This document shows positions 1 through 19,786 of a stretch of 37,261 nt of DNA, one piece after another. Below the pieces are notes generated by a model. That model had not been told where the DNA came from. It saw only the letters and a program-made list of their open reading frames with translations, and searched no databases. The stretch lies in the IMG/VR virus record IMGVR_UViG_3300031999_002039, positions 1 to 37,261 of that record. One strand, written 5' to 3'. Every line of letters starts with the position of its first letter. Position 1 is the stretch's first letter. The position numbers and the translations under genes are program-made. The stretch comes from a virus (lineage: Duplodnaviria; Caudoviricetes).

Positions 1-155
1 GCATTCGTTAATACCACAAATTAGGAGCAACTCAAACAGGACAAAGGGTAGTGCTTCCCGTTGTAAAAGTCCGGGTTGAGGCATCCCGTGAGGGGCTTAC
101 CGAAAGGTATGAGATAAATGTAAAGATAGAACAGAACCGCGGCTACGGCTGTGTC
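1..155 (+). ncRNA. rnpB: RNase P RNA, bacterial type A-like (3' part; 5' end outside window)
   Basis: Landmarks in canonical order: GGAGCAA (24-30); P15 CTC/GAG (31-33/78-80) with L15 GGGTT (73-77); P16 GGAC/GTCC (39-42/69-72); GNRA-capped hairpins (GTGA, GAAA); CR-IV-like AGATAAATG (112-120); CR-V-like ACAGAACCGCGGCTA (131-145). Ends just before a tRNA. Confidence 0.65.
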
Positions 156-161
156 GAATAT

Positions 162-237
162 GGGGTCTTAGCTCAGTTGGTAGAGCGTCTCAATGGCATT
201 GAGAAGGTCAGGGGTTCGACTCCCCTAGGCTCCACCA
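162..237 (+). tRNA. tRNA-Ala(GGC)
   Basis: Full cloverleaf; acceptor GGGGTCT/AGGCTCC with G3:U70; anticodon loop ATGGCAT (A32-U38 as in bacterial Ala-GGC); TTCGA T-loop; ACCA end. Confidence 0.96.
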
Positions 238-239
238 TT

Positions 240-640
240 TTTGGCTGACTGCAAGAGAGCAGTTGCGGAATGATAACCGTCATTCTTAGAGAATCGTATT
301 CTCGACCAAACTTTAGTCTAACTATTATTGATTAGTTGAGATTTCTTGGTAAGAAATCAAGAGAGTCATACTCTCTCAGGCTAATACAGGAGGTATTCAT
401 CTTTAATCGGATGATATCTCCGACAATTTAGATGTAGTTACAGCAATAACTATATTACATGAAAAAAACCAAACAGGTAAAAAATCCCGACCAAAATCGG
501 GTCGTGGCGATGGCCACGTAAAAAACGTTCAACATGGATACGTTGTAAAAAATGTCACGGAGAAAACCGTAAATCTTACATCTAGTCATCTTCTTCTTCG
601 TGAAGAGGATAAAGTCTCTCTCTTGTGAGGAAGACTTTAT
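240..640 (+). ncRNA. Candidate large structured non-coding RNA(s) in tRNA spacer
   Basis: No credible ORF; nearly continuous hairpins; two four-way junctions (240-310, 313-384), hairpin 389-421, multibranch domain closed by TAGATGTA/TACATCTA (429-436/577-584), hairpins 588-610 and 609-640. Strand assumed from the flanking tRNAs. Confidence 0.55.
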
Positions 641-714
641 GGGGTCATCGTTCAACGGTAGGACAGTTCGTTCGCAACGAATAGATTCGGGTTCGATTCC
701 CGGTGGCTCCACCA
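641..714 (+). tRNA. tRNA-Ala(CGC)
   Basis: Acceptor GGGGTCA/TGGCTCC with G3:U70; anticodon arm GTTCG-TTCGCAA-CGAAT; TTCGATT T-loop; ACCA end. Confidence 0.93.
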
Positions 715-736
715 ATTTTTAGATAGACAGTTTTGT

Positions 737-810
737 TGATGTGTGGTGTAGTGGCCGCACGAGGCTCTCTGAAAGCTCAGGACTTGGTTCGATTCCAAGC
801 ACATCAGCCA
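737..810 (+). tRNA. tRNA-Gln(CUG)
   Basis: Acceptor TGATGTG/CACATCA (U1-A72), discriminator G73, loop CTCTGAA, T arm CTTGG-TTCGATT-CCAAG, CCA end; A27:C43 mismatch in the anticodon stem. Confidence 0.88.
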
Positions 811-814
811 ATTT

Positions 815-971
815 ACAACGGGTACCTTAATCAATCCCTGACGTATTTTATACTCAGGATAATCACGGGCAATAAGTAGGTTGTTAATTTCAACCGAAGA
901 CCGTGTTAGGTCGCCACAATCATAAGTCGTGGCTTTGAAGTCAAGCAAGACCTTGACGGGTTATTCGTTGT
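815..971 (+). ncRNA. Candidate ~157-nt multibranch structured RNA
   Basis: Closing stem ACAACG/CGTTGT (815-820/966-971) extended by G-U pairs; internal helices CCTGA/TCAGG, CACGG/CCGTG, GGTTG/CAACC, GCCAC/GTGGC, GTCAAG/CTTGAC; fills the Gln-Ser tRNA spacer almost exactly. Confidence 0.55.
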
Positions 972-975
972 TTTC

Positions 976-1067
976 GGATGGGTGGTAGAGTGGTCTATTG
1001 CACTTGCTTGGAAAGCAAGAGGTCGGCGAAAGTCGGCCCGGAGGTTCGAATCCTCCCTCATCCGCCA
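976..1067 (+). tRNA. tRNA-Ser(GGA)
   Basis: Acceptor GGATGGG/CTCATCC, anticodon arm CTTGC-TTGGAAA-GCAAG, long variable arm with GAAA loop, G73, CCA end. Confidence 0.95.
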
Positions 1068-1080
1068 ATTTTCAAAAATT

Positions 1081-1260
1081 ATGATTGAACATTTAAGTGT
1101 GTTTCCAGAAGGCGTAGAAGTAATTACATGGCCAAAACATGAGGTTGAGGCATTGAATGAACGCATTTTGGTTGCTTTAGAAAAAGCAGATTCAGAAAGA
1201 CGTGAGGCTCGGGCAAGATACAATGCAACATTGCCTACTCACCTTAGACGACTTGGATAG
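1081..1260 (+). CDS. Small hypothetical protein (59 aa) between two tRNA-Ser genes
   Basis: ATG at 1081; protein-like, helical sequence (MIEHLSVFPEG...); the longer track start at 982 lies inside a tRNA; the TAG stop overlaps the next tRNA. Confidence 0.55.
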   Translation: MIEHLSVFPEGVEVITWPKHEVEALNERILVALEKADSERREARARYNATLPTHLRRLG

Positions 1261-1344
1261 TAGGCAAATGTTGGTTTGTTGCGTTAGTTTCGAAAACTAA
1301 TCCGGTGAAAGCCGGCGGGGGTTCAATTCCCTCACTATCCGCCA
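1255..1344 (+). tRNA. tRNA-Ser(CGA)
   Basis: Acceptor GGATAGT/ACTATCC, anticodon arm TTAGT-TTCGAAA-ACTAA, long variable arm CCGGT-GAAA-GCCGG, G73, CCA end. Confidence 0.93.
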
Positions 1345-1361
1345 CCTTCAAATAAAATAAG

Positions 1362-1393
1362 TTGATTGTTAATTCTCTTCATGGTAGTATAAT
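1362..1393 (+). promoter_or_regulatory. Sigma70-type promoter
   Basis: TTGATT-17 bp-TAGTAT with extended -10 TG; overlapping TATAAT at 1388-1393; upstream of the HD gene. Confidence 0.6.
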
Positions 1394-1414
1394 TCCTCAA
1401 ATTGAAACTATCAT

Positions 1415-2098
1415 ATGATTACAAAACCAAACTTAACCGATGCTGAAATTCAAGAGAACTATCAAGAATTTATCAAGTTCGTAGGTGACGTGTTCACCGG
1501 CGAAAGAAAAGAAAAACTTCTAAAGATGTATTCCGATAACGATGGTTCGTTGGGATTATCTCTAGCCACAGCACCCGCTTCAATGTGCCAACACTTCCAT
1601 CTATGTCATCCGGGTGGATATCTACAACATATCATGGGCGTCATTAAAATGTCGTTCGCTTCAAAGAAACTCTTTGAACTTGCTGGTTGTAACATTGACT
1701 TCACAGATGAACAAATGATTTTTGCAGCGATGCATCACGACTTGGGTAAATTGGGCGACCCTGAGTTTGGCGAATACTACGCTCCACAAGACCAAGACTG
1801 GAAGTATAAGAAGGGTGAGTTCTATAAAATGAACGGCAATCTTCCTTATATGGAAGTCACTGACCGAGCAATTTTCCTACTTCAAAAGTATGGCGTTGTA
1901 TATGATTGGAAGGAATACCTTGGTATCAAATTGGCAGACGGTTTGTTTAACGAAGCCACGGAAAAATACCTGAAACAATACAATCAGGACCTTTATCTTA
2001 AAACAAATCTTCCACGCGTCATTCACTCCGCAGACTATACAGCTTGTCGAGCTGAATACGATTCGTGGTATTATGCTAAGAGTGAAGAACGGCTCTAA
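1415..2098 (+). CDS. HD-domain phosphohydrolase (YhaM-like HD domain)
   Basis: PAS..FH...PGGYLQH, MHHDLGK and IHSAD metal-binding motifs. Confidence 0.85.
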   Translation: MITKPNLTDAEIQENYQEFIKFVGDVFTGERKEKLLKMYSDNDGSLGLSLATAPASMCQHFHLCHPGGYLQHIMGVIKMSFASKKLFELAGCNIDFTDEQMIFAAMHHDLGKLGDPEFGEYYAPQDQDWKYKKGEFYKMNGNLPYMEVTDRAIFLLQKYGVVYDWKEYLGIKLADGLFNEATEKYLKQYNQDLYLKTNLPRVIHSADYTACRAEYDSWYYAKSEERL

Positions 2099-2112
2099 TA
2101 ATCCCTTTGATG

Positions 2113-2156
2113 AAAAATATCCCTCGTCTGAAATACTCAGCGGGGGATATTTTTTT
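2113..2156 (+). terminator. Intrinsic terminator, probably bidirectional
   Basis: AAAAATATCCCTCG...CGGGGGATATTTTTTT hairpin with A-tract before and T-tract after. Confidence 0.8.
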
Positions 2157-2270
2157 GTACACGAAGAGTCCACTGATGCGGATTAAGCACCTTACATGAA
2201 ACTTTATATGGTCAAGGCGCGAATATCCACTTTCCATACATTATAAATATCATTCAATAACACAACATCA

Positions 2271-2299
2271 TTGACATTTGTGTGAAGTTGTGGGATACT
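2271..2299 (+). promoter_or_regulatory. Sigma70-type promoter
   Basis: TTGACA-17 bp-GATACT with extended -10 TG; AGGAGA Shine-Dalgarno before the ATG at 2361. Confidence 0.7.
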
Positions 2300-2360
2300 T
2301 GACTTGTGTTAGAGTAAATAAACCGTAATAAATTCCTAAATAAAATAGGAGAACCACATA

Positions 2361-2657
2361 ATGGGAAACAAAAAAAGAACAAATCAGGTAATTCCGGACG
2401 CAGTTCCTACTCCAGAAATATCTTCAATCGAACTCGGGGAACAAGAATCATATTGTTGGTCGTCGAATGATGAAGCTACAACACGTTATGTTGTAATTCG
2501 TGGTGGGTTAAGAGTCTCTGATAAAGACTATACATCAACCACCGAACCCCGAGCTATTGCTGAAAAGGAATTTTGGCAAAGAGTTGTTACCAAGTGGCCG
2601 GATGGAACGAAGGTGGAAATCGTTCAGTATGATAAGAAGAAACATCGTATTTGGTAA
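2361..2657 (+). CDS. Hypothetical protein
   Basis: 98-aa ORF with SD and promoter upstream. Confidence 0.8.
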   Translation: MGNKKRTNQVIPDAVPTPEISSIELGEQESYCWSSNDEATTRYVVIRGGLRVSDKDYTSTTEPRAIAEKEFWQRVVTKWPDGTKVEIVQYDKKKHRIW

Positions 2658-2660
2658 TCT

Positions 2661-3002
2661 ATGAATATGAACGAAGAATTAAAATCTTTGTCTGATATTC
2701 CAGAGTCGGATATTGTTTCAAGAATGACTAAGGCAAGTCTATTGGCAGAAAATCCGGAGGTAATTAGAGAAATTACCAAATATGGAAATGTGCCTGTCAT
2801 ATATCAACCACACAAGTCAGTTCTCAAAGACGCACAAAGACAAGACCCCGGACTCGGTGTTCTTATTGAGAACGCAATGACTCCCCAAGAAGTCACGAAT
2901 CTTCTAACCAAAGGAAAGTTAGATTATAAATACGCACAACCCAAGACCATCAAAAAATGGGAAACGATAGCTAAGAACAGAATAAAAGAACTTAGCAAGT
3001 AA
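2661..3002 (+). CDS. Hypothetical protein
   Basis: 113-aa ORF, 3 nt after the previous stop, followed by a terminator. Confidence 0.8.
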   Translation: MNMNEELKSLSDIPESDIVSRMTKASLLAENPEVIREITKYGNVPVIYQPHKSVLKDAQRQDPGLGVLIENAMTPQEVTNLLTKGKLDYKYAQPKTIKKWETIAKNRIKELSK

Positions 3003-3023
3003 TATTCACACAAGTTCATACGT

Positions 3024-3053
3024 AACGTGGCAGAGAAATCTGCCACGTTTTTT
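3024..3053 (+). terminator. Intrinsic terminator
   Basis: Perfect stem AACGTGGCAGA-GAAA-TCTGCCACGTT followed by a T-run. Confidence 0.88.
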
Positions 3054-3074
3054 CTTTTTGTACTTCTGACTTGA

Positions 3075-3082
3075 TATTTATG
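3075..3082 (+). promoter_or_regulatory. Candidate phage late-promoter motif TATTTATG
   Basis: Recurrent motif, here 9 nt before the ATG at 3092. Confidence 0.5.
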
Positions 3083-3091
3083 TCATGAAGT

Positions 3092-3448
3092 ATGGCAACA
3101 AAAAAGAATACAAATAGTTTACCAACTCTCTACGTCCTTCCATCGGAAAGTAAGGATTTACAATCCTTCTCCCAGAAATATAAAGTTGATATGATGGAGC
3201 AAGTTGTGGGCATCATAGAATTTGCTATCGAACATCACCTGCCAATGATAGAAGTATTTCAGTTTAAAAATTCTGATTTTGTTATTACATTATCAGAAAA
3301 AGATTATTTGACTAATCTTAACAATATCTACTCTTATTACATGAAAGAAGAAGAGTATGAATATTGTCCAAGAGTAGTTAGGTTACAAAAAACATTGCAG
3401 TCCACACCAAAAAACACTGATGAAAAACAAACGCATCGACAAAAATGA
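3092..3448 (+). CDS. Hypothetical protein
   Basis: 118-aa ORF overlapping the phoH start. Confidence 0.78.
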   Translation: MATKKNTNSLPTLYVLPSESKDLQSFSQKYKVDMMEQVVGIIEFAIEHHLPMIEVFQFKNSDFVITLSEKDYLTNLNNIYSYYMKEEEYEYCPRVVRLQKTLQSTPKNTDEKQTHRQK

Positions 3449-10020: not shown

Positions 10021-10728
10021 ATGAATGAGTTATACAAGTCTCTTTTCATTGAAAAGATATCAAATTTCGTTTGTTTCATCAAATATAGAAGTCACATCTA
10101 TTCATTTGAAAAACCATTTTTGTTAGATAAAAGTTCCGTCCCGCCAATGTTACAAGATTCGGTGATAAGTTTGATTGATTGCACAACTAATAAACAATAT
10201 TTCATGCACTTCGATGATATTCTTATGTTTCATACTAAACATGAAAATGATATATCAAAATCCGACGAAGAACTTTCAAAGTTGCTTGTGAATAATCAGA
10301 AAATCTTTTCACGATTAAAATTTCTAAAAGGAAGAAATCTATACGATTTGTTTTTTCGGTCTGATTTTGATGAAAGTAGATTTGAAAAAATAAAAAACAT
10401 TCAGTTGTTAGACGCATTACAATTAGATGATTTAGATGATTATACCAAATTAATCAAAAACGATAAATCAATAATCGAAGTGATAAGAGTTTTTTGGTAT
10501 TCAAAAATAATGGAACGGTATGATTCTGTAGTAAAATCATTGAATGAGGAATTTTCCGTTGCGGCGGATGATAATATAGCCGTAGAATTGAATGACATAA
10601 AAAACATCATTACAATAATTCCAAAAGAGGCTGAAAAAGAATTGTCTAATAGACACACTAGGGATGAAATATTGAGTTACTGGCCATTATTATTGTTACC
10701 ACGACCCGACATATTTGATATAAAATGA
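10021..10728 (+). CDS. Hypothetical protein with C-terminal tail-fibre-chaperone-like region
   Basis: Likely start MNELYK at 10021; ends ILSYWPLLLLPRPD; C-terminal half similar to 12013-12441. Confidence 0.55.
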   Translation: MNELYKSLFIEKISNFVCFIKYRSHIYSFEKPFLLDKSSVPPMLQDSVISLIDCTTNKQYFMHFDDILMFHTKHENDISKSDEELSKLLVNNQKIFSRLKFLKGRNLYDLFFRSDFDESRFEKIKNIQLLDALQLDDLDDYTKLIKNDKSIIEVIRVFWYSKIMERYDSVVKSLNEEFSVAADDNIAVELNDIKNIITIIPKEAEKELSNRHTRDEILSYWPLLLLPRPDIFDIK

Positions 10729-11366
10729 CGGTTTTTTTGATAAATATACCACCTAACACAGAGACACACGAATACAAATTGTGTTATGATGTGTTGAAAG
10801 ATTATTTCAAGAAATACAACATACAAACATTCACACTGGATAAGAATGAGTTTGACGTTCATCCATCTTGGCTCAAATTAAAATGTTTTGACTATGTGGA
10901 TGATGATTTTATATTGTGTTGGGATGTAGATTTGTTACCTAAAAAGAAGTGTCCTTCCATAACCAACGACCTAAACTTTGATAAAATCAACGCGGTTGTA
11001 GATACAATCCTCCACACAAACTCAACGACACCCCTATTCGATGCAAGCCAGTTTCGTTTTAACTGTGGTTTGGTGGGTATTCCACGAAAGTATAGGGGAT
11101 TGTTGGATAAGGTCTTTTTAGAAGCCAAAACGTCAACGTTACCCTCATATGAACAATATCCAATGAATAGTGAGTTGGCTAAAAATGAATTCAAAGACGT
11201 TCACGAATTGGATAAAAAATGGAACTGTATATTTCACCTTCCTACAGTTCCGAACAGTTTTTTAACTACATCTAACGTGGTTCATTACACCAGCATAGGA
11301 AGTAATGATATTAGAAGAAGTCTTATTGATTCTCACCACAAGTCATATTTCTTAAATAAGAATTAA
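10725..11366 (+). CDS. GT8-like (GT-A fold) glycosyltransferase
   Basis: SWLKL, ILCWDVD (DxD), FNCGLV, YEQ..MN, WN and VVHY motifs. Confidence 0.75.
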   Translation: MTVFLINIPPNTETHEYKLCYDVLKDYFKKYNIQTFTLDKNEFDVHPSWLKLKCFDYVDDDFILCWDVDLLPKKKCPSITNDLNFDKINAVVDTILHTNSTTPLFDASQFRFNCGLVGIPRKYRGLLDKVFLEAKTSTLPSYEQYPMNSELAKNEFKDVHELDKKWNCIFHLPTVPNSFLTTSNVVHYTSIGSNDIRRSLIDSHHKSYFLNKN

Positions 11367-11975
11367 CGTTTTTGATTTTATCATTTCGTTTAACTTTTTA
11401 CACTCAATTAACCACGGGTGTCCATCTGTAAAATTTTCGGTTCTCTGGATATTATTTGTCAATCCATAAACATCCCAATACCATCCACTTTTCATAAAAC
11501 TATCAAAGCCGGTGATGTATATTTTTTCATTTTTGAAATGATGTAAACAATACAGTATGGTTCTAAATCCTGTGCTGTAATCCATATCAACATCGAAATC
11601 TAACACCTTAATTTTGTCATAGAACGAACATTCTTTGAGTATTTTATCATCTTTGTTTTTCGTCCATAAAAACAATACAGACTTCAACCTATCAAAATCA
11701 ACGTCATTGGGAGCAAAGACCTTCTCAAAATTTTCAGTTATTGGTTCTGCAATTGTCTGTTTCCACAGACTGTATCTCTGTTCCTTTGATAACTTACAAC
11801 ACTCTAATATTTTAGACCAACACGAATATATGTCAATTTTTGTTCCAACATATTTCTCAAACCCATCTATTTTGAAATTATTCAATCGTATGACAATATC
11901 GGATTCATCTATAAATTTACCATTTTCGTTGGTCAGCGCTTTTGACCCATTGCCTATTATTATAATTCTGTTCAT
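11352..11975 (-). CDS. GT29 (sialyltransferase-like) protein
   Basis: Start MNRIIIIGNG at 11975; G.FID..DIVIRLN...VGTKID (sialylmotif-L-like); STGF...IYITGFD (motif-S-like); late H..E. Confidence 0.78.
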   Translation of the reverse strand: MNRIIIIGNGSKALTNENGKFIDESDIVIRLNNFKIDGFEKYVGTKIDIYSCWSKILECCKLSKEQRYSLWKQTIAEPITENFEKVFAPNDVDFDRLKSVLFLWTKNKDDKILKECSFYDKIKVLDFDVDMDYSTGFRTILYCLHHFKNEKIYITGFDSFMKSGWYWDVYGLTNNIQRTENFTDGHPWLIECKKLNEMIKSKTLILI

Positions 11976-12012
11976 AAACCAATTTGATGTTATCATAGAT
12001 ATGTATGTTATC

Positions 12013-12441
12013 ATGACAAAGAAACTGATATGGAAGTTGTTTTTTAATACTGGATTCACAGACCCTACAAAATTAATAGGGGAGGAAAGAACAAAGTATC
12101 TAGCATTCAAAGTTTTTGAATTTATGAATTCGGATAATGTAGAGGATTTTTTTGGGTTGATAAATAACAACAAAGAAACTCTCAATAGATTGAAGAGTGT
12201 GTGGTTGAAAAGGATTGATGAATCTAAGCAAAAGATATTAGCATATTTGGAGTCTGAACGATTACAAGCTACCGAAGAATCAGAAATCGCTGCTATAAAT
12301 GAAGTAAAACAACTTGTTATCGACTACGATTACGAATCGGATTACTCTGGGGTCAATACTTACAAGGATATTATATCGAAATGGCCCAATATTTTGTTGC
12401 CTGTTCCGACAGATGTTAATATACTCAATAAACTATTATGA
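12013..12441 (+). CDS. Tail-fibre-chaperone-like hypothetical protein
   Basis: Likely start MTKKLIW at 12013 (the upstream extension is antisense to the GT29 gene); ends IISKWPNILLPVPTD. Confidence 0.55.
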   Translation: MTKKLIWKLFFNTGFTDPTKLIGEERTKYLAFKVFEFMNSDNVEDFFGLINNNKETLNRLKSVWLKRIDESKQKILAYLESERLQATEESEIAAINEVKQLVIDYDYESDYSGVNTYKDIISKWPNILLPVPTDVNILNKLL

Positions 12442-13361
12442 ATTTTGCCGTAAAGAGAATGTCGTGGAAAGATGTGAAATTTTCCACAGGCCTCACATCT
12501 TCAAAAAATGAAAATTCTAACCAACTTTTCATTGATATGTTGTCATCTAAAGGTCTTGGTGGATTAGAAAAATACCCAAACATCGCTCAGTGTTACAATC
12601 AATTGATACACTATTTTCAGATAGAACCGGACTCAATCATCTTAGGTTTCGGAGGCGACCAACTGTTGAAAGATTTATTTGTGGTGTTAGACTACAATTC
12701 TATTCAGATTTTTAACCACAGTTATGAATTAGCCACGGTTTACAACCAAATACTGAATAAGAGTGTTTTATTGAATGATTACATCTTCGATGGAGAATTC
12801 AAAGTAAAGACGCCTATTGAGTTTGTAGGAGGCGACGTATTGTATTTGGTGAACCCACACTGTCCAACAGGTATAGAACTCTACGTGGAAGAGATAGAAA
12901 TACTGGCCACAAAGTTCAAATACATCATCATTGACGAAGCCTATAAAAATCCACTCAATATAGACCACAGACTTTTGAAGATTGATAACGTCATCGTTGT
13001 CAAAAGTTTTTCAAAGATTGGAGGGGTTCCCGGCTTACGATTTGGATATTGTCTGGCCAATAAATCAATCATTGAAAAGCTCAGAACGATAAAACCGTTG
13101 TATGAAATGAACAGTATTTCTGTAAAATACTTGAACTACATTCTCCACAACCCACAAGTTTTAGACGACCATCTGATGGAAATGGGCAAGACCTACGACA
13201 TATTGAAGGTCATAAACGGTGGGTTTAGTGTCCGTGTAGGAAATTTTGCTACATTTGAATGCTTTGGAAAATTATCAGGTAAATTCTATTCTATTGATGG
13301 AAAAACTTTCGTAAGAACAACACTGACAGATGTTGACAACTATAAGAGGTTATTGTTATGA
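12438..13361 (+). CDS. PLP-dependent class I/II aminotransferase or decarboxylase (HisC/CobD-like)
   Basis: GFGGD, NPHCPTG, DEAY and SFSKIGGVPGLRFGY (PLP lysine) motifs. Confidence 0.88.
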   Translation: MNFAVKRMSWKDVKFSTGLTSSKNENSNQLFIDMLSSKGLGGLEKYPNIAQCYNQLIHYFQIEPDSIILGFGGDQLLKDLFVVLDYNSIQIFNHSYELATVYNQILNKSVLLNDYIFDGEFKVKTPIEFVGGDVLYLVNPHCPTGIELYVEEIEILATKFKYIIIDEAYKNPLNIDHRLLKIDNVIVVKSFSKIGGVPGLRFGYCLANKSIIEKLRTIKPLYEMNSISVKYLNYILHNPQVLDDHLMEMGKTYDILKVINGGFSVRVGNFATFECFGKLSGKFYSIDGKTFVRTTLTDVDNYKRLLL

Positions 13362-14053
13362 AAGTAGTAATTGTAGGAAATGGTAAATGTGCTCTTAACA
13401 ATAAGAATGGAAAATTCATTGATGGGTGTGATGTAGTTGTCCGAATCAAGAACTTTCAGACGATTGGTTTTGAAGAGTTTGTAGGTGAAAAGATAACCCT
13501 CTTTTCAAGCAAATGGTTTTCTTGGTTTGATAGACATACCAACGAACCATTAAAATTTGATTTCTTGGATAGAGTTAATGACTATCTGTTCATGTTTTAT
13601 GACCCATTCAAAAGGCACAATTTCAGTGAAATTGCTTATAGGAAACTTTATGAGGAATTACAGTTGAAAAACGAATTCCACGACAGCATAATTGGAACTC
13701 CTGAATTGCATAGTAGATATTTGAAAGAATTTGGAATAGACAATAAGACGATTCATTATATGTCTCCAGAAGAAATTGAAGAGTTGGTGATTAGACAACT
13801 GAAATTCAACCCTGACAAATATCTGACCCCATCAGGCAAATTAGTAGAACCTACATGTGGCATAAGAACCATACACAAGATGTTAAATCTCTATAAGAAC
13901 GATGAAATCTTTATCACAGGCTTTGATGGGTTTATGACTACTTGGTATTGGAATGAGTCTCATAAAAAGAATCCGGCACATGCTTACATCAATGAGATTT
14001 TGTATTTGAAGAGACTTGCCAAGAGTGGTAGAGTGAAAAATTTGGATGAATAA
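13358..14053 (+). CDS. GT29 (sialyltransferase-like) protein
   Basis: VVIVGNG..G.FIDGCDVVVRIKN..VG.K; PTCG; FITGFD; HAYINE. Confidence 0.78.
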   Translation: MKVVIVGNGKCALNNKNGKFIDGCDVVVRIKNFQTIGFEEFVGEKITLFSSKWFSWFDRHTNEPLKFDFLDRVNDYLFMFYDPFKRHNFSEIAYRKLYEELQLKNEFHDSIIGTPELHSRYLKEFGIDNKTIHYMSPEEIEELVIRQLKFNPDKYLTPSGKLVEPTCGIRTIHKMLNLYKNDEIFITGFDGFMTTWYWNESHKKNPAHAYINEILYLKRLAKSGRVKNLDE

Positions 14054-14672
14054 TTCTCCGTCAGTTATTATTGTTGGAAAAGGAACTTCTCTTCTTGGGA
14101 AAGAATTGGGTAGTGTCATAGATGCGTTTGATATAGTCATTCGTGTCAATCATATGCCTACGGATACGAATGTACAAAAACACATAGGAGCAAAAACTAC
14201 CATATTTTCTTCCATACCTGTTAGGAAAATTACAGAATATTGGAATGATATAGTGGCCATTAAAAAATTGTGGATAGGTAAATCGTGGGAAATAGAACGA
14301 AATAATGTAAAATACCAAGGTTACTACAAAATTATTGATGATGCTAATAAAGAAGGAGTGGATGTGAAATTTTTAAGTAAAGAAGAATACACACATCTTG
14401 TAGAGGAATTTTCTGGGTTTGGGGAAGTGTTTTGTTCATCGGATGGTGAGTGGGGCCTTTGTATTCCTGATACAGGAGTAACTACCATTCTCAGTGCGAT
14501 ACATAGATTTGAAGGCAGCAAAATCTGTGTTTGTGGATTTGATTTCTATGTAGATAAAACGAATGTATTTGACTATGAATACAATCTCCGTCTTATTGGA
14601 ACAGAACCGATAATGAAACAAATTTTGTATTACAAGAAGTTATTATACAGTGGAAAAATCTATGAGTTATGA
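14046..14672 (+). CDS. GT29 (sialyltransferase-like) protein
   Basis: IIVGKG..LGSVIDAFDIVIRVN..HIGAKTT; PDTG; VCGFD. Confidence 0.75.
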   Translation: MNNSPSVIIVGKGTSLLGKELGSVIDAFDIVIRVNHMPTDTNVQKHIGAKTTIFSSIPVRKITEYWNDIVAIKKLWIGKSWEIERNNVKYQGYYKIIDDANKEGVDVKFLSKEEYTHLVEEFSGFGEVFCSSDGEWGLCIPDTGVTTILSAIHRFEGSKICVCGFDFYVDKTNVFDYEYNLRLIGTEPIMKQILYYKKLLYSGKIYEL

Positions 14673-15546
14673 GAATGAACATCTGAATAAGAGGATTAGT
14701 AGGTATGATATAAATACTAAGGCTGCATCCTTTACCACGACATTGAAAGGATTGGCCATCATTGTTCTTAACATTACGGAACTATGCACACGAAAATGTT
14801 CGTTCTGTCCCAGAACCAATCCTGAGATATATCCAAACCAAAATATTCACATGACAAAGGAAACGGCGTTTCTGATATCTGAGAAGTGTAAATTGGACGG
14901 ATATACTGGAGATATCCATATTTCAGGCTTTGGAGAACCATTACTCAACAGAAACATATTGGAACTTTTGACAAATATCCGTGTCAATCTTCCAAACAAT
15001 CATATCATCCTTACATCCAATGGTGATAGGATGACGATTGATTACATGAAATCTCTGTATTCCTCAGGTGTCAATTACATTTCTATTAGTTGTTACGAAG
15101 AACCATTGTATGCAAAGTTTGAAAAGATGTTTGCTGATTGTGATGTTCCACAGGAAAATTTCAAGATAAGAAAGTTGTGGTTCATTGAGAATGAAAATAC
15201 AAGTGAATTTGTAGAACGAAACACTTTTCACAATGCTGGTGGAACTTTACCGGGCGACAACGATAAAGTAAAGAATAATCCATGTTATTTTCCATTCTAC
15301 AAGATGATGGTTGACTGGAATGGGGATGTATTGTTATGTTGTGAGGATTGGTTACGAAAGGCCGGCACATTCGGTAATCTTACAAGAGATAGTCTGAGTG
15401 AGGTATGGCATGGTCAAAAATTCAATGAGATTAGAATGGGATTATTGAACAAGAACAGGGCATGTAACAATGCCTGTAAGAATTGTAGTATCAATGGTCT
15501 TTTGATGGGGTATGATAGTGTCAAAGTTCTTGAGTCAATTTTATGA
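14662..15546 (+). CDS. Radical SAM enzyme with SPASM/twitch domain
   Basis: CTRKCSFC, GFGEP, TSNG; C-terminal PCYFPF..DWNGDVLLCC..GN..W..CKNC. Confidence 0.9.
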   Translation: MSYENEHLNKRISRYDINTKAASFTTTLKGLAIIVLNITELCTRKCSFCPRTNPEIYPNQNIHMTKETAFLISEKCKLDGYTGDIHISGFGEPLLNRNILELLTNIRVNLPNNHIILTSNGDRMTIDYMKSLYSSGVNYISISCYEEPLYAKFEKMFADCDVPQENFKIRKLWFIENENTSEFVERNTFHNAGGTLPGDNDKVKNNPCYFPFYKMMVDWNGDVLLCCEDWLRKAGTFGNLTRDSLSEVWHGQKFNEIRMGLLNKNRACNNACKNCSINGLLMGYDSVKVLESIL

Positions 15547-16475
15547 GTTCCAAAAGAATAGCATTTGTCTGTGATGAAGATTTACCAAACTATTTGGTGA
15601 ATCCGAAACGTTATGATTATCTCCAAGGTAAACATAGTGCCACAGGCTATTACTATTGGATACTCAAAAACCACGGAATTGAGAACATAGAATTGGTAGG
15701 ATTGGATGCCAACCTCAATGATTATGACGTAGTAGTAATTTACTATGACAACAAGGATATTTTACAACCGAATCGAAAGTATAAGGTAATCCAATCAGTT
15801 TCAGACCGACCACAGATAGAGGGGTGTGACTTGTATATTTGCTGCAATTACAGCACTATCAAGCCAATTTTGGATGTGGAATTGGTGAAAAGATGTGGGG
15901 TGGGGTTAAAACACGTCTTAAAGGGGTCGTGGCACTATATTCACTACCCCATGGCGTTAAATTACAAGAAGTGTAATCCGGTATGGCCACCGTCAATATA
16001 CCACTTTACAGGGCGACAAAACACCTTGATTGAAGAACTGTATTCGGATGTGTTTATAGACCACATGAAATCGAAAGGCATTAATCTACGATTTGATTTT
16101 CTTACCGACCACAATAACGGTGATGAAGACGTGTATTTTTGTGTCAGAAACAATAAGACATATTACTCAGAGATTTGTGGTGGAAACAACGTGGACACAG
16201 CATTGGGACAGAAAACAGCCAACAGACTTTATCAGGCGTGGAAGATGGGTACACCATCAATTTTCCATTCTAATTCGGCAATGTTTTCAATCAGAAAATC
16301 GGAGTATGATTTCTTGATTGCTGATACCGTTGATGAATTTGAAGATGCTTGTATTCGTTTGAAGACGAATGAAATCCTATTTAAGAACATGGTTGATGTG
16401 TGTAATAAAAGACAAAATGAACACACCAACGAAGACATAGTGAAACAGTGGATGAAAGGTTTTAGTTTGATATGA
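15543..16475 (+). CDS. Putative GT-B fold glycosyltransferase
   Basis: C-terminal KTANRLYQAWKMGTPSI resembles the K..RL...W..G.P.I donor-binding segment of GT-B enzymes; gene context agrees. Confidence 0.55.
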   Translation: MSSKRIAFVCDEDLPNYLVNPKRYDYLQGKHSATGYYYWILKNHGIENIELVGLDANLNDYDVVVIYYDNKDILQPNRKYKVIQSVSDRPQIEGCDLYICCNYSTIKPILDVELVKRCGVGLKHVLKGSWHYIHYPMALNYKKCNPVWPPSIYHFTGRQNTLIEELYSDVFIDHMKSKGINLRFDFLTDHNNGDEDVYFCVRNNKTYYSEICGGNNVDTALGQKTANRLYQAWKMGTPSIFHSNSAMFSIRKSEYDFLIADTVDEFEDACIRLKTNEILFKNMVDVCNKRQNEHTNEDIVKQWMKGFSLI

Positions 16476-17263
16476 GTGACGATAAAGTAATACAATATTC
16501 ACTGACAGGAGCGGCGCCTACAATTTACTACATGTATGCTTCTAAAATACAGAAATATTGTGAAGAGAATGGAATTAATTTCAGTCTAAAAAATTCTGAA
16601 AATAACCTAAAAGAAACACTGTGTAAGGACAATCGCCATACTATTTCTTTTTGTCCGATAGACTTTTATATCAAGTTGGTAGATTTTTGTAAGGAGGCCA
16701 AAAAAATCAAAAAAGAGTTTGATTGTTTTATGGGATGTAATTTGTCAATGGGGTCACATATAGGCACGTTTGATTCTAACAATCCACATTTGTATTTATC
16801 CATAACGTTTTTCTTTATTATGGACAAGAAAGTGGTTATGAAATGGAAATTGATTCCACACATTGAAGATGAAAAAAAAGTCATAAATGAAGGAATTGTT
16901 ATTAGAAATGGTAAAGTTTCTGTATTTTCATATAAACGAATCAATAAAATGGCATGGAAAATATATGATGGTTATTATGACCATCTTATTTTAGCTCCCG
17001 GAACACTTTTCATTCACGGTCTTATTACAGGATTAAAACTTGGTAAATTTGACCATGACCATATAGATTATGTAAAAGACCGAGCAGCAATTATAAAACA
17101 TATCGACCAATTTAATTCAAAATATGGTACAACCATGTATTTGTCAGATGATGATAAAGTATTGAATACTCCGGGCGGTCTAAATGTTATGTGTGAACAG
17201 GCAGTAAAAGACGGTGTGAAGTATCCATATACAACCAGTTGTATAAAAAGAATGTCAGAGTAA
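16472..17263 (+). CDS. Hypothetical protein
   Basis: 263-aa ORF coupled to the previous gene by an ATGA overlap; no motif recognised. Confidence 0.75.
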   Translation: MSDDKVIQYSLTGAAPTIYYMYASKIQKYCEENGINFSLKNSENNLKETLCKDNRHTISFCPIDFYIKLVDFCKEAKKIKKEFDCFMGCNLSMGSHIGTFDSNNPHLYLSITFFFIMDKKVVMKWKLIPHIEDEKKVINEGIVIRNGKVSVFSYKRINKMAWKIYDGYYDHLILAPGTLFIHGLITGLKLGKFDHDHIDYVKDRAAIIKHIDQFNSKYGTTMYLSDDDKVLNTPGGLNVMCEQAVKDGVKYPYTTSCIKRMSE

Positions 17264-18136
17264 AATATCTACACTCTCTTTGCCTATCAATGTTCCTGTT
17301 ATGTTACAGTGTTTACATGCTGGATTGTTAGTTCTGTCTCCAGTGATAAGTGATTTACGAACTTTGGTAAATTCTTCACCAAACCAAATCTCTCTGAGAC
17401 TTTGTTCATTGATATTACCAAATCCCTTATGCCTTCTAAGCCAATCATTACAACACAATAATACATCACCATTCCAATCAATAACCAGTTTGTAAAATGG
17501 CAAATAACACTGGCCACTGTAGGTCTTGTCTTCTTTTATGGATGATACTGCACCTGAACGATTGTTGAACTTATTCTTTTCAACGAACGTCTTTATGTCT
17601 TCGTCTGGATTACGCCACAGTTTACGTATCTCATATGATGATTGTGGTATATTCGACTCTTGAAAGAGTAAATCAAATTTCTCTTTACTTTCGGGACCAT
17701 CGTAACAACTTATTATCATGAAATCCAAACCACACTCATAGATTTCTTTCAAATTCATCTTATTCAAACAATCACCGTTGTTGGTTATTGTTACACGGTT
17801 GTTTGGTAAGTGTATCTTCAACGTCTTTACGATATCAAAGATTTTTTTGTGTAAAAATGGTTCACCAAAACCTGAAATATGAATGTCTCCGGTGTATTTT
17901 TCTTCCTTACATTTTCGGGCGAAATTGTCCACGGTTTCTATGGACATGTGGAGATTTCTATTCTTATAGACGGTTGCATCGCCTCTTGGACAAAACTTAC
18001 ACGTCCTAGTACAAAGTTCGGTAATGCATAATTCAACTACTGCCAACCCCTTTAGATGTTCTTTGAACGATTCCGTCTGTGAGTTGATGTAGTATCTGTC
18101 AAATCTTTTTTCAAGATGTTCTGTTGAATTTACCAT
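17255..18136 (-). CDS. Radical SAM enzyme with SPASM/twitch domain (paralogue of 14662-15546)
   Basis: Likely start MVNSTE at 18136; CTRTCKFC, GFGEP, CYLPFYK..DWNGDVLLCC..CKHC. Confidence 0.9.
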   Translation of the reverse strand: MVNSTEHLEKRFDRYYINSQTESFKEHLKGLAVVELCITELCTRTCKFCPRGDATVYKNRNLHMSIETVDNFARKCKEEKYTGDIHISGFGEPFLHKKIFDIVKTLKIHLPNNRVTITNNGDCLNKMNLKEIYECGLDFMIISCYDGPESKEKFDLLFQESNIPQSSYEIRKLWRNPDEDIKTFVEKNKFNNRSGAVSSIKEDKTYSGQCYLPFYKLVIDWNGDVLLCCNDWLRRHKGFGNINEQSLREIWFGEEFTKVRKSLITGDRTNNPACKHCNITGTLIGKESVDILL

Positions 18137-19104
18137 TATTTCAATTTGGTAGCATGGGCGTAGGCGATACATGATTCACATGCGGTGCCAGTAACATCCT
18201 TTTTCAAATGGGCAGCCCTAAACTTCTGAAATCCTTCTGAATTCCAAGCATCCATGAATGATTCTTTGTTCAAATCACCGACTTGGAATTTGCCTGAACC
18301 ATCGAAACAACAGACAGTAAGACCACCATCCGCCCTTACATGACCTTCGGTAAATACCGACCAACAAGGAAGTGGGTCCACCAAAGCACCTATGCGGCCC
18401 TGATTACCCGCGGTGGGCCTATAACCAAGTTCTTCTTCTCGTGTGGTTGCAAAACTTGCCATCGAATACAAAGGAAGCCAATAATGTTTATCCACATAAG
18501 GTCTGATATTCTCATTCAGGAAATTTTCCATTTTACCTTCTTGAGTTTTGTCATATTGAATGGAACTGGCTGATAACTTGGTTTTATATCCTTTTTCATT
18601 TCGGATTTTAAATGCTTCTTGGATGTTCTTAATTGTATTTCTAAACATCTTTGGTGATACAGCCATGATGGTAGCAAATTGGGCTTCGTCACAAGCATTA
18701 ACCGACCATTTCAGAGAATCCAAGCCGGCCTTCATGACACGTTCTACTATGGCCGGAGTCGCCAGTGACCCGTTGGAAGTCAGGAAGACATAAGGCATAC
18801 CAATCTCTTTCAGATAGAGGATGGCTGCTTCAAGTAAATCAGGATTGATGGTGGATTCACCAATGTAGAATACGCCTATTTCTTCAACGCCCGCATCCAA
18901 CATTTCTTTGGTGATTCGTTTGAACAAGTTCAAATCCATGTCGGTTTTGGGTTGAACCACACGGGCGGATAGAGAACAGAATCCACAACGGAAGTTGCAT
19001 CGAGGAGATAATTCTATCTTAACTGAGCGGGGCGCGGGAATGATGGTTTTAAGCCTATCAACCGGAATCTTTGTTATACTGTCAATTCTTTGTGTGATAT
19101 CCAT
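18136..19104 (-). CDS. Radical SAM enzyme with SPASM/twitch domain
   Basis: CNFRCGFC, IGE, TSNG; PCWSVF..DGGLTVCCFD..GDL..W..CESC. Confidence 0.9.
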   Translation of the reverse strand: MDITQRIDSITKIPVDRLKTIIPAPRSVKIELSPRCNFRCGFCSLSARVVQPKTDMDLNLFKRITKEMLDAGVEEIGVFYIGESTINPDLLEAAILYLKEIGMPYVFLTSNGSLATPAIVERVMKAGLDSLKWSVNACDEAQFATIMAVSPKMFRNTIKNIQEAFKIRNEKGYKTKLSASSIQYDKTQEGKMENFLNENIRPYVDKHYWLPLYSMASFATTREEELGYRPTAGNQGRIGALVDPLPCWSVFTEGHVRADGGLTVCCFDGSGKFQVGDLNKESFMDAWNSEGFQKFRAAHLKKDVTGTACESCIAYAHATKLK

Positions 19105-19126
19105 AATACACGATACATATAGCAGA

Positions 19127-19786
19127 ATGAATTACATCATACATCAAACTTGGAAAAATGGCAACTTAGATGAAGAACAGAGTTTATGGGTTGATTCTAT
19201 AAAAAAAGCATATCCAAATTACAAATATAAGTTCTGGTCCGACGATGACAATTTGTGGTTGATTAGAATTAGACATCCTGAGTTTCTAAAGTTTTATGAA
19301 ACTCTTAATGCTGTAGAAAAGATTGATTTCGTAAGACACCTATACATCTACAACTATGGAGGTATTTATTTGGACATAGATGTTAAAATGAACAAACCTT
19401 TGGTATTGGAAGGTGCCGATGTATTTCTTTGCGATCAAACTGAGGAAGTAAATACTGAAAAAGTAGAATTTCTTGTGGACCCGTTCTTTTTAGCTGGTGA
19501 GGAAAAGTGTTCATTTTTCTACTCAATGTGCGAATCAATGATGCGAGGAACTATCTATAATATCCTATCATCCAAAACCGACAAGAAATACCACGAAACT
19601 TTGTATAAAACTGGCCCCTATATGTTCACAAAGTTTTACTTGATAAACAAACACAAATACAACATCAAAGTTCTAAAAGATGTGTTTACCACTAAGTATT
19701 ATGAAACCGACACTCCAAAAGAACAGTTTTATGGTATCCACATGCAATTTAATTCGTGGTTAAACCCGGAAGACCGTCGCCGCTAA
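19127..19786 (+). CDS. GT32-like (DxD) glycosyltransferase
   Basis: Start MNYIIHQTWK at 19127; FWSD, DFVR..Y.YGGIYLDID, TGP and H..NSW motifs. Confidence 0.85.
   Translation: MNYIIHQTWKNGNLDEEQSLWVDSIKKAYPNYKYKFWSDDDNLWLIRIRHPEFLKFYETLNAVEKIDFVRHLYIYNYGGIYLDIDVKMNKPLVLEGADVFLCDQTEEVNTEKVEFLVDPFFLAGEEKCSFFYSMCESMMRGTIYNILSSKTDKKYHETLYKTGPYMFTKFYLINKHKYNIKVLKDVFTTKYYETDTPKEQFYGIHMQFNSWLNPEDRRR

Follow-up and report, generated by a model that had tools for sequence, protein, structure and literature searches.

A putative reduced RNase P RNA with a type A-like core, encoded within the tRNA arrays of large phages

The window, i.e., the whole stretch of DNA analyzed here, is an entire viral contig of 37,261 bases (IMG/VR record IMGVR_UViG_3300031999_002039), classed as linear, with a completeness of about 11%. 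Among its encoded proteins are PhoH, tail-fibre-like proteins, and baseplate wedge proteins. Five tRNA genes and nothing else were recognized by Rfam at gathering level. Ahead of them, bases 1 to 158 were confirmed by comparison with related loci to be the 3' portion of a predicted phage RNase P RNA, truncated by the contig start. The features are listed below, with pairing percentages and double changes taken from an alignment of relatives.

1 to 158, plus strand: phage RNase P RNA, 3' 158 nt (whole gene 251 nt in locus L005 and 355 nt in locus L002)
2 to 6, plus strand: stem at the P12 position, 3' strand (hypervariable; short and long forms rejoin where the contig begins)
7 to 16, plus strand: conserved single strand at the CR-III position, possibly the remnant of a putative T-loop
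14 to 22, plus strand: P7/P10-like stem, 3' strand (helix 6, 94% paired)
24 to 27, plus strand: P5, 3' strand (100% paired, double changes in 4/4 pairs)
28 to 30, plus strand: J5/15, with A at the position predicted to read substrate base -1
31 to 33 with 78 to 80, plus strand: P15 (90% paired, double changes)
39 to 42 with 69 to 72, plus strand: P16 (85% paired, double changes)
46 to 48 with 57 to 59, plus strand: P17 (98% paired, double changes)
52 to 56, plus strand: P6 pseudoknot, 3' strand (95% paired, double changes)
74 to 76, plus strand: L15 GGU, predicted to pair with tRNA RCCA
84 to 95 (GUGA) and 98 to 109 (GAAA), plus strand: GNRA-capped hairpins at the P18 position, missing from some relatives
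112 to 120, plus strand: CR-IV
120 to 125, plus strand: P2, 3' strand (96% paired, double changes)
131 to 136, plus strand: CR-V
137 to 144, plus strand: P4, 3' strand (8 bp with the CR-I strand upstream, bulged U)
148 to 158, plus strand: P1, 3' strand (83% paired, double changes in 9/9 pairs)
162 to 237, plus strand: tRNA Ala-GGC
641 to 714, plus strand: tRNA Ala-CGC
737 to 810, plus strand: tRNA Gln-CUG
976 to 1067, plus strand: tRNA Ser-GGA
1255 to 1344, plus strand: tRNA Ser-CGA

Each of the five tRNA genes has U at position -1 and an encoded purine-CCA. Two non-coding segments of the plus strand lie between them, both with zero Rfam matches at gathering level. The segment 410 to 640, between the two tRNA-Ala genes, is likely a further structured RNA, with a folding z of -5.9 against shuffles and 69-77% conservation in related phages. 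The segment 811 to 975, between tRNA-Gln and tRNA-Ser, gave a closed multi-hairpin fold (z -3.95) and shows 73-85% identity in several related phages. A glycan-modifying gene cluster, with some genes on the opposite strand, was found at 10725 to 19786. It includes GT29 sialyltransferase-like proteins (13358 to 14053, 14046 to 14672, and a match in the minus-strand ORF 11352 to 12185), a class I/II aminotransferase, a DXD glycosyltransferase, and three radical SAM proteins.

The original prediction, made from the sequence alone, had described P15/L15/P16, P18, CR-IV, and CR-V motifs at 1 to 155, and all of them were located in the window in the claimed order. The end of the segment did not hold; because the 3' strand of P1 occupies 148 to 158, the RNA would end near 158. 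The CR-IV/CR-V pattern occurred once in the window and in none of 200 dinucleotide shuffles. When Rfam was searched at E up to 10 with the first 170 bases, RF00010 was the sole match, 5'-truncated, at 8 bits and E 0.92, so Rfam by itself is no proof of an RNase P RNA. Single-strand folding of 1 to 161 was nothing unusual (z -0.76), as is expected for half of a pseudoknotted RNA. In blastn of bases 1 to 240 against cultured phages, only tRNA matches were among the best 20 listed. However, a covariance model of the 3' halves of 21 relatives, with L002 and L005 omitted and one 82%-identical locus included, matched the window significantly at 4 to 162 with 136.7 bits, the next best match being 10.9 bits.

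Because the window is the entire contig, the 5' part could be obtained only from relatives. A first pattern scan of viral contigs gave seven loci. L002 is 99.8% identical to window 2 to 2462 and L005 is 98.8% identical to 1 to 3148, and the first 240 window bases have zero mismatches in both, save base 1 in L002. The gene spans 1484 to 1838 in L002 and 2987 to 3237, minus strand, in L005; by the L005 length, the window is without 93 nt of the gene. The 5' strands of P1, P2, P3, CR-I, P5, P6, and P7 in these two loci are each complementary to a window strand, with P3 judged by eye only. Thus, the CR-I/P4 and P1 partners that were sought upstream are both present.

Over 131 upstream bases, L002 and L005 are identical; what separates the two is an insertion in the P12-position stem, which is also found in metagenome contig L057. 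This insertion of 104 nt (L002 1560 to 1690 versus L005 about 3140 to 3160) splits near-identical genomes and gave a branched-extension fold (z -1.8). By eye, similar P12 inserts seem to recur in further relatives, in the pair L667 and L647 and in the pair L696 and L705. DNA run X1 may represent the source sample. There, a contig of depth 20.5 ends near window base 5, and the depths were 10.5 for a 73-base piece of the short form and 18.2 for the piece upstream. These depths of the short form and its flanks suggest that the contig broke at a two-form P12 bubble. Window base 1 agrees with the short form, an agreement of one base.

By three stricter scans of viral contigs, 238 loci with 189 distinct cores and a common P4 signature were collected. 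The four P4 pairs left free by the search pattern were all formed in 175 of the 189 distinct cores, against a mean of 27 and a maximum of 42 in a strand-shuffle control. Two other searches gave mostly chance matches and were discarded, i.e., loose two-motif viral scans (8/8 P4 pairs at 25/360 loci) and a 15-base CR-I scan of metagenomes (matching CR-V at 2/119 loci). The reduced layout of the window is common to 33 cores under a looser pattern. The alignment of 21 rows comprises 18 of these 33, L626, L125, and the window; most long-insert members and the more distant ones are outside it, and its structure was taken from one member, L013. With this structure, 93.1% of cells were paired, compared with 70.7% in shuffled and 34-43% in slid controls, although motif-based choice, relatedness, and the single-member structure inflate these pairing controls. 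Double changes were found in 37 of 50 pairs, with every helix represented, and in 20 rows the pairing of P4 reached 100%. Of 190 cores, 20 could be parsed strictly, with the P6 partner picked by best fit; P4, P5, P6, and P7 were fully paired in 20/20 of these and P2 in 17/20. Without a structure, it would be difficult to account for the independent types of pairs in P2, P5, P6, and P7.

The low or nil Rfam scores and the widely varying length could be expected if the gene were a captured host rnpB in decay, or host DNA misfiled as viral. This explanation is very improbable, since covariation, with compensatory changes in all helices, largely refutes it. The 189 distinct viral versions also speak against it, as do the tail and baseplate proteins of the window, which share 71-79% identity with those of large phage records carrying the same RNA. 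Furthermore, a copy is present in a cultured phage. At about 105774 to 106022 of KU682439.2, the Stenotrophomonas phage DLP6 has a relative with the P4 signature of the 189 cores directly before a tRNA-Arg gene, scoring 54.7 bits on RF00010, which is unannotated in GenBank; the main text of the DLP6 paper (PMC5349666) does not mention RNase P.

The claim of a phage-borne, divergent type A-like RNase P RNA was thereby supported, with P4, L15 GGU, CR-IV, and CR-V intact. The predicted order and pairing of P1-P6 and P15-P17, CR-I, and the bulged U of P4 are also shared with the bacterial type A RNA (RF00010; rnpB/M1 RNA), which is the best Rfam match of the window and most relatives. P4 with its bulged U, CR-V, and the AA of J5/15 are invariant or nearly so, L15 GGU is kept in most members, and the P2-P4/CR-IV region is strictly conserved. 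Over the whole model, RF00010 gave 45.3 bits for L001 and L003, 44.1 for G003, and 45.9 for L125. The gathering cut-off of 100 bits is missed by the window (8), by the close relatives (44-55), and by L005, whose full gene had zero Rfam matches at E up to 10. It is passed by a distant viral member, L649, at 102 bits. The tRNA array of L649, in which this RNA lies, also shows a weak match to YrlA, a Y RNA-like RNA, at 242 to 342 (32.7 bits).

The phage RNA diverges mainly in that its specificity domain is predicted to be almost lost, a change that is not visible within the window. A standard specificity domain has about 140 nt. Between the P5 strands of L005 there are only 51 nt, leaving no room for P8, P9, P13, and P14, which are absent, and the gene has 251 nt against the 367 positions of the type A model. 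Across the 20 parsed cores, the domain has 44-169 nt, with length variation confined to P12 (9-134 nt). The P18 position holds two hairpins or none, unlike the single P18 of type A that docks on P8. Standard CR-II and CR-III motifs were not found in L005 and L002, and by a simple pattern the two were recognizable together in just 7 of the 189 viral cores, so reading of the tRNA elbow may be lost and activity may be low. Two short conserved strands beside P12 may be CR-II/CR-III remnants. The missing motifs are compatible with RNase P function because the domain is degenerate in type T RNAs as well. By score and specificity domain, then, the phage RNA is outside type A membership, with a core that is type A-like.

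Divergence had originally been claimed from an odd P4 strand and the two P18 hairpins. The RNA is indeed divergent; however, the P4 change is a compensated substitution that is common in archaea. CR-I and CR-V have the lengths of the Rfam pattern, with substitutions at the two pairs adjoining the bulge, and an indel reading, i.e., two pairs before the bulge and six after, was rejected because of these lengths. In a relative from LR756508, the first of these two U positions is instead a C that pairs with G, so that the second U is the bulge. In cellular genomes, scanned with the gap between CR-I and CR-V limited to about 200-260 nt, the signature was found at no fewer than 120 loci, with 101 archaeal and 19 bacterial titles among the matches listed; bacteria are under-sampled in this set. 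Eleven bacterial-titled loci were tested, of which five matched the archaeal model, two matched RF00010 above the cut-off, and four matched neither. One of the two RF00010 matches is a Limnocylindria contig, whose rnpB has the same P4 form and scores 197.6 bits, and the other lies between tRNA genes and may be phage DNA. The P4 variant is thus known chemistry in archaea and bacteria and does not settle the origin.

An archaeal origin, suggested by the P4 form, was not adopted in view of the Limnocylindria P4, the bacterial-looking L15, the promoter, and the tRNAs. Among single loci from the scans, L799, a contig in an Alphaproteobacteria bin, carries a full-length type A RNase P RNA (170 bits). 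This RNA is flanked by a tRNA gene on either side, has the phage-type P4, and could resemble an unreduced ancestor. L749, from a Gammaproteobacteria bin, resembles the reduced form of the phages. Both loci may be phage DNA that was binned with bacteria. Archaeal RNase P RNA was also seen on five contigs of genomes titled as gut bacteria (L737, L746, L764, L786, and L791), likely misbinned archaeal DNA.

The archaeal type T of Thermoproteaceae resembles the phage RNA in its degenerate specificity domain and in a predicted P6, as passages of PMC5839562 describe type T. One relative, L546, scores best on the archaeal type A model (RF00373; 47.1 bits), whereas the window matched neither RF00373 nor the type T models. 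The phage RNAs differ from the archaeal types in a bacterial-style P15/L15, frequent hairpins at the P18 position, a sigma-70-like promoter, and bacterial-type tRNAs with encoded CCA; the archaeal protein Pop5 was found in 0/5 carriers. Reduced cellular RNase P RNAs are already known, i.e., those of CPR bacteria and of type T archaea. According to passages of PMC8172020, the CPR/Patescibacteria RNAs also score below Rfam cut-offs and are without P13, P14, and other peripheral helices. They differ in being cellular and in that the L15 UGG motif, which the phage RNA keeps, is missing from 23 of 35; the phage RNA is additionally without P8 and P9.

RNase P RNA is seen as a housekeeping ribozyme of cells. 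Full-text literature searches, with most subscription papers outside their scope, gave no publication on an RNase P RNA of a phage, and term searches of the main texts of PMC7162821, PMC10747093, PMC12851939, PMC10941002, and PMC12636597 found no mention of one. The sole viral precedent found is an RNA of camelpox virus, an animal virus. As passages of PMC3001073 describe it, this RNA has some structural similarity to RNase P RNA, was inactive in vitro, and slightly lowered the host activity. Together with the almost lost specificity domain, this precedent would agree with a decoy, i.e., an RNA of little catalysis that captures host RnpA or host tRNA precursors and shifts the tRNA supply toward the phage. 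Such a role is quite unlikely, considering that the active-site positions are conserved as described, that a protein decoy would not require a substrate-binding loop, and that the phage tRNAs themselves require 5' trimming. Unlike the camelpox RNA, the phage RNA retains the full conserved core with covariation.

The phage RNA is probably an active RNase P RNA with a whole catalytic domain that, assisted by host RnpA, trims the 5' leaders of phage pre-tRNAs. The five tRNAs downstream in the window are its likely substrates. The gene had been placed at the head of the tRNA array, which proved wrong; with five tRNA genes upstream in L002 and seven in L001, it lies inside the array. In the complete 365-kb phage G003, whose baseplate protein is 78% identical to that of the window, the RNA gene is within a 15-kb run of tRNA genes. 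A tRNA gene was near 123 of 156 distinct loci with flanks of at least 2.5 kb, and none was on the opposite strand. Among 882 nearby tRNA genes, 628 have U at -1 (background 34%) and 634 encode CCA, features that suit the host enzyme equally well.

A sigma-70-like promoter-like site was found at L002 1434 to 1461, 23 nt upstream of the gene. The motif after this site, which we take to be boxA-like, is present in 10 of 19 close relatives. No part of the gene was covered by the RNA contigs of two metatranscriptome runs, X21 and X23, a result that weighs neither way. RnpA (PF00825) was found in 0/8 carrier records, four of them complete, whereby host RnpA would be the likely partner. The head domain of a CCA-adding/poly(A) polymerase was found in 5/5 carriers. 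The nearest cultured baseplate matches, at 34-42% identity, are Microcystis phage Mel-JY01 and Flavobacterium immuto phages. Two of these cultured distant relatives, Mel-JY01 and immuto, had zero matches to the RNA model built from the carriers' relatives of the window RNA, so the RNA would be dispensable across the wider phage group.

The lack of RnpA in the carriers would also fit an RNA that acts protein-free or chiefly on its own transcript, specialized for a polycistronic array or for unusual substrates that the host handles poorly. In 7 of 19 close relatives examined, a tRNA gene follows CR-V after 17-23 nt, which favors this reading, as do the further structured RNAs of the same array. 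However, the neighboring tRNAs look ordinary. In the bacterial holoenzyme structure, the P2-P4/CR-IV region binds the protein, and the strict conservation of this region in the phage RNAs argues for a protein partner. Catalytic domains alone can cleave model hairpins, but RNA-alone cleavage is slow and needs high Mg2+, as passages of PMC5839562 report. A protein-free array processor is therefore unlikely.

For the RnpA-assisted enzyme, the following course is proposed. The RNA would be transcribed from the promoter-like site just 5' of the gene, fold, and then bind the host RNase P protein. Metal-ion catalysis would take place at P4, whose bulged U binds a catalytic metal according to passages of PMC3488217. 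Because the P8/P9/P13/P14 parts are lost, the substrate would be gripped mainly by L15 GGU-RCCA pairing and by J5/15 at base -1. P6 would hold the catalytic domain folded, host RnpA would compensate for weak substrate binding, and 5' leaders would be removed from the precursors of phage tRNAs. Passages of PMC5839562 report that a type A catalytic domain without its specificity domain cleaves about 120-fold slower, dependent on P6 and with P18 not needed. The strictly kept P6 and freely variable P18 of the phage RNA fit these results. During infection, the phage would likely gain the capacity to process a large tRNA array, or independence from a host enzyme that becomes limiting or damaged.

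It is conceivable, though doubtful at present, that large phages own a minimal RNase P class, with a core of about 35 nt and a plug-in P12 of 9-134 nt, for host-independent tRNA maturation that sustains translation. If so, the reader of the tRNA elbow would have been replaced by the core and a P12 module that occurs in two forms among near-identical genomes. Such a class would keep translation running once host defenses or shut-off disable tRNA processing. The DLP6 copy, being in a cultured phage, makes expression and function directly testable. As natural minimal ribozymes, the phage RNAs would also bear on an old question, namely how large a specificity domain RNase P requires. Large phages bring tRNAs and a CCA-adding enzyme for translation, and a phage version that is widespread and conserved would extend this set to the maturation of tRNA 5' ends.
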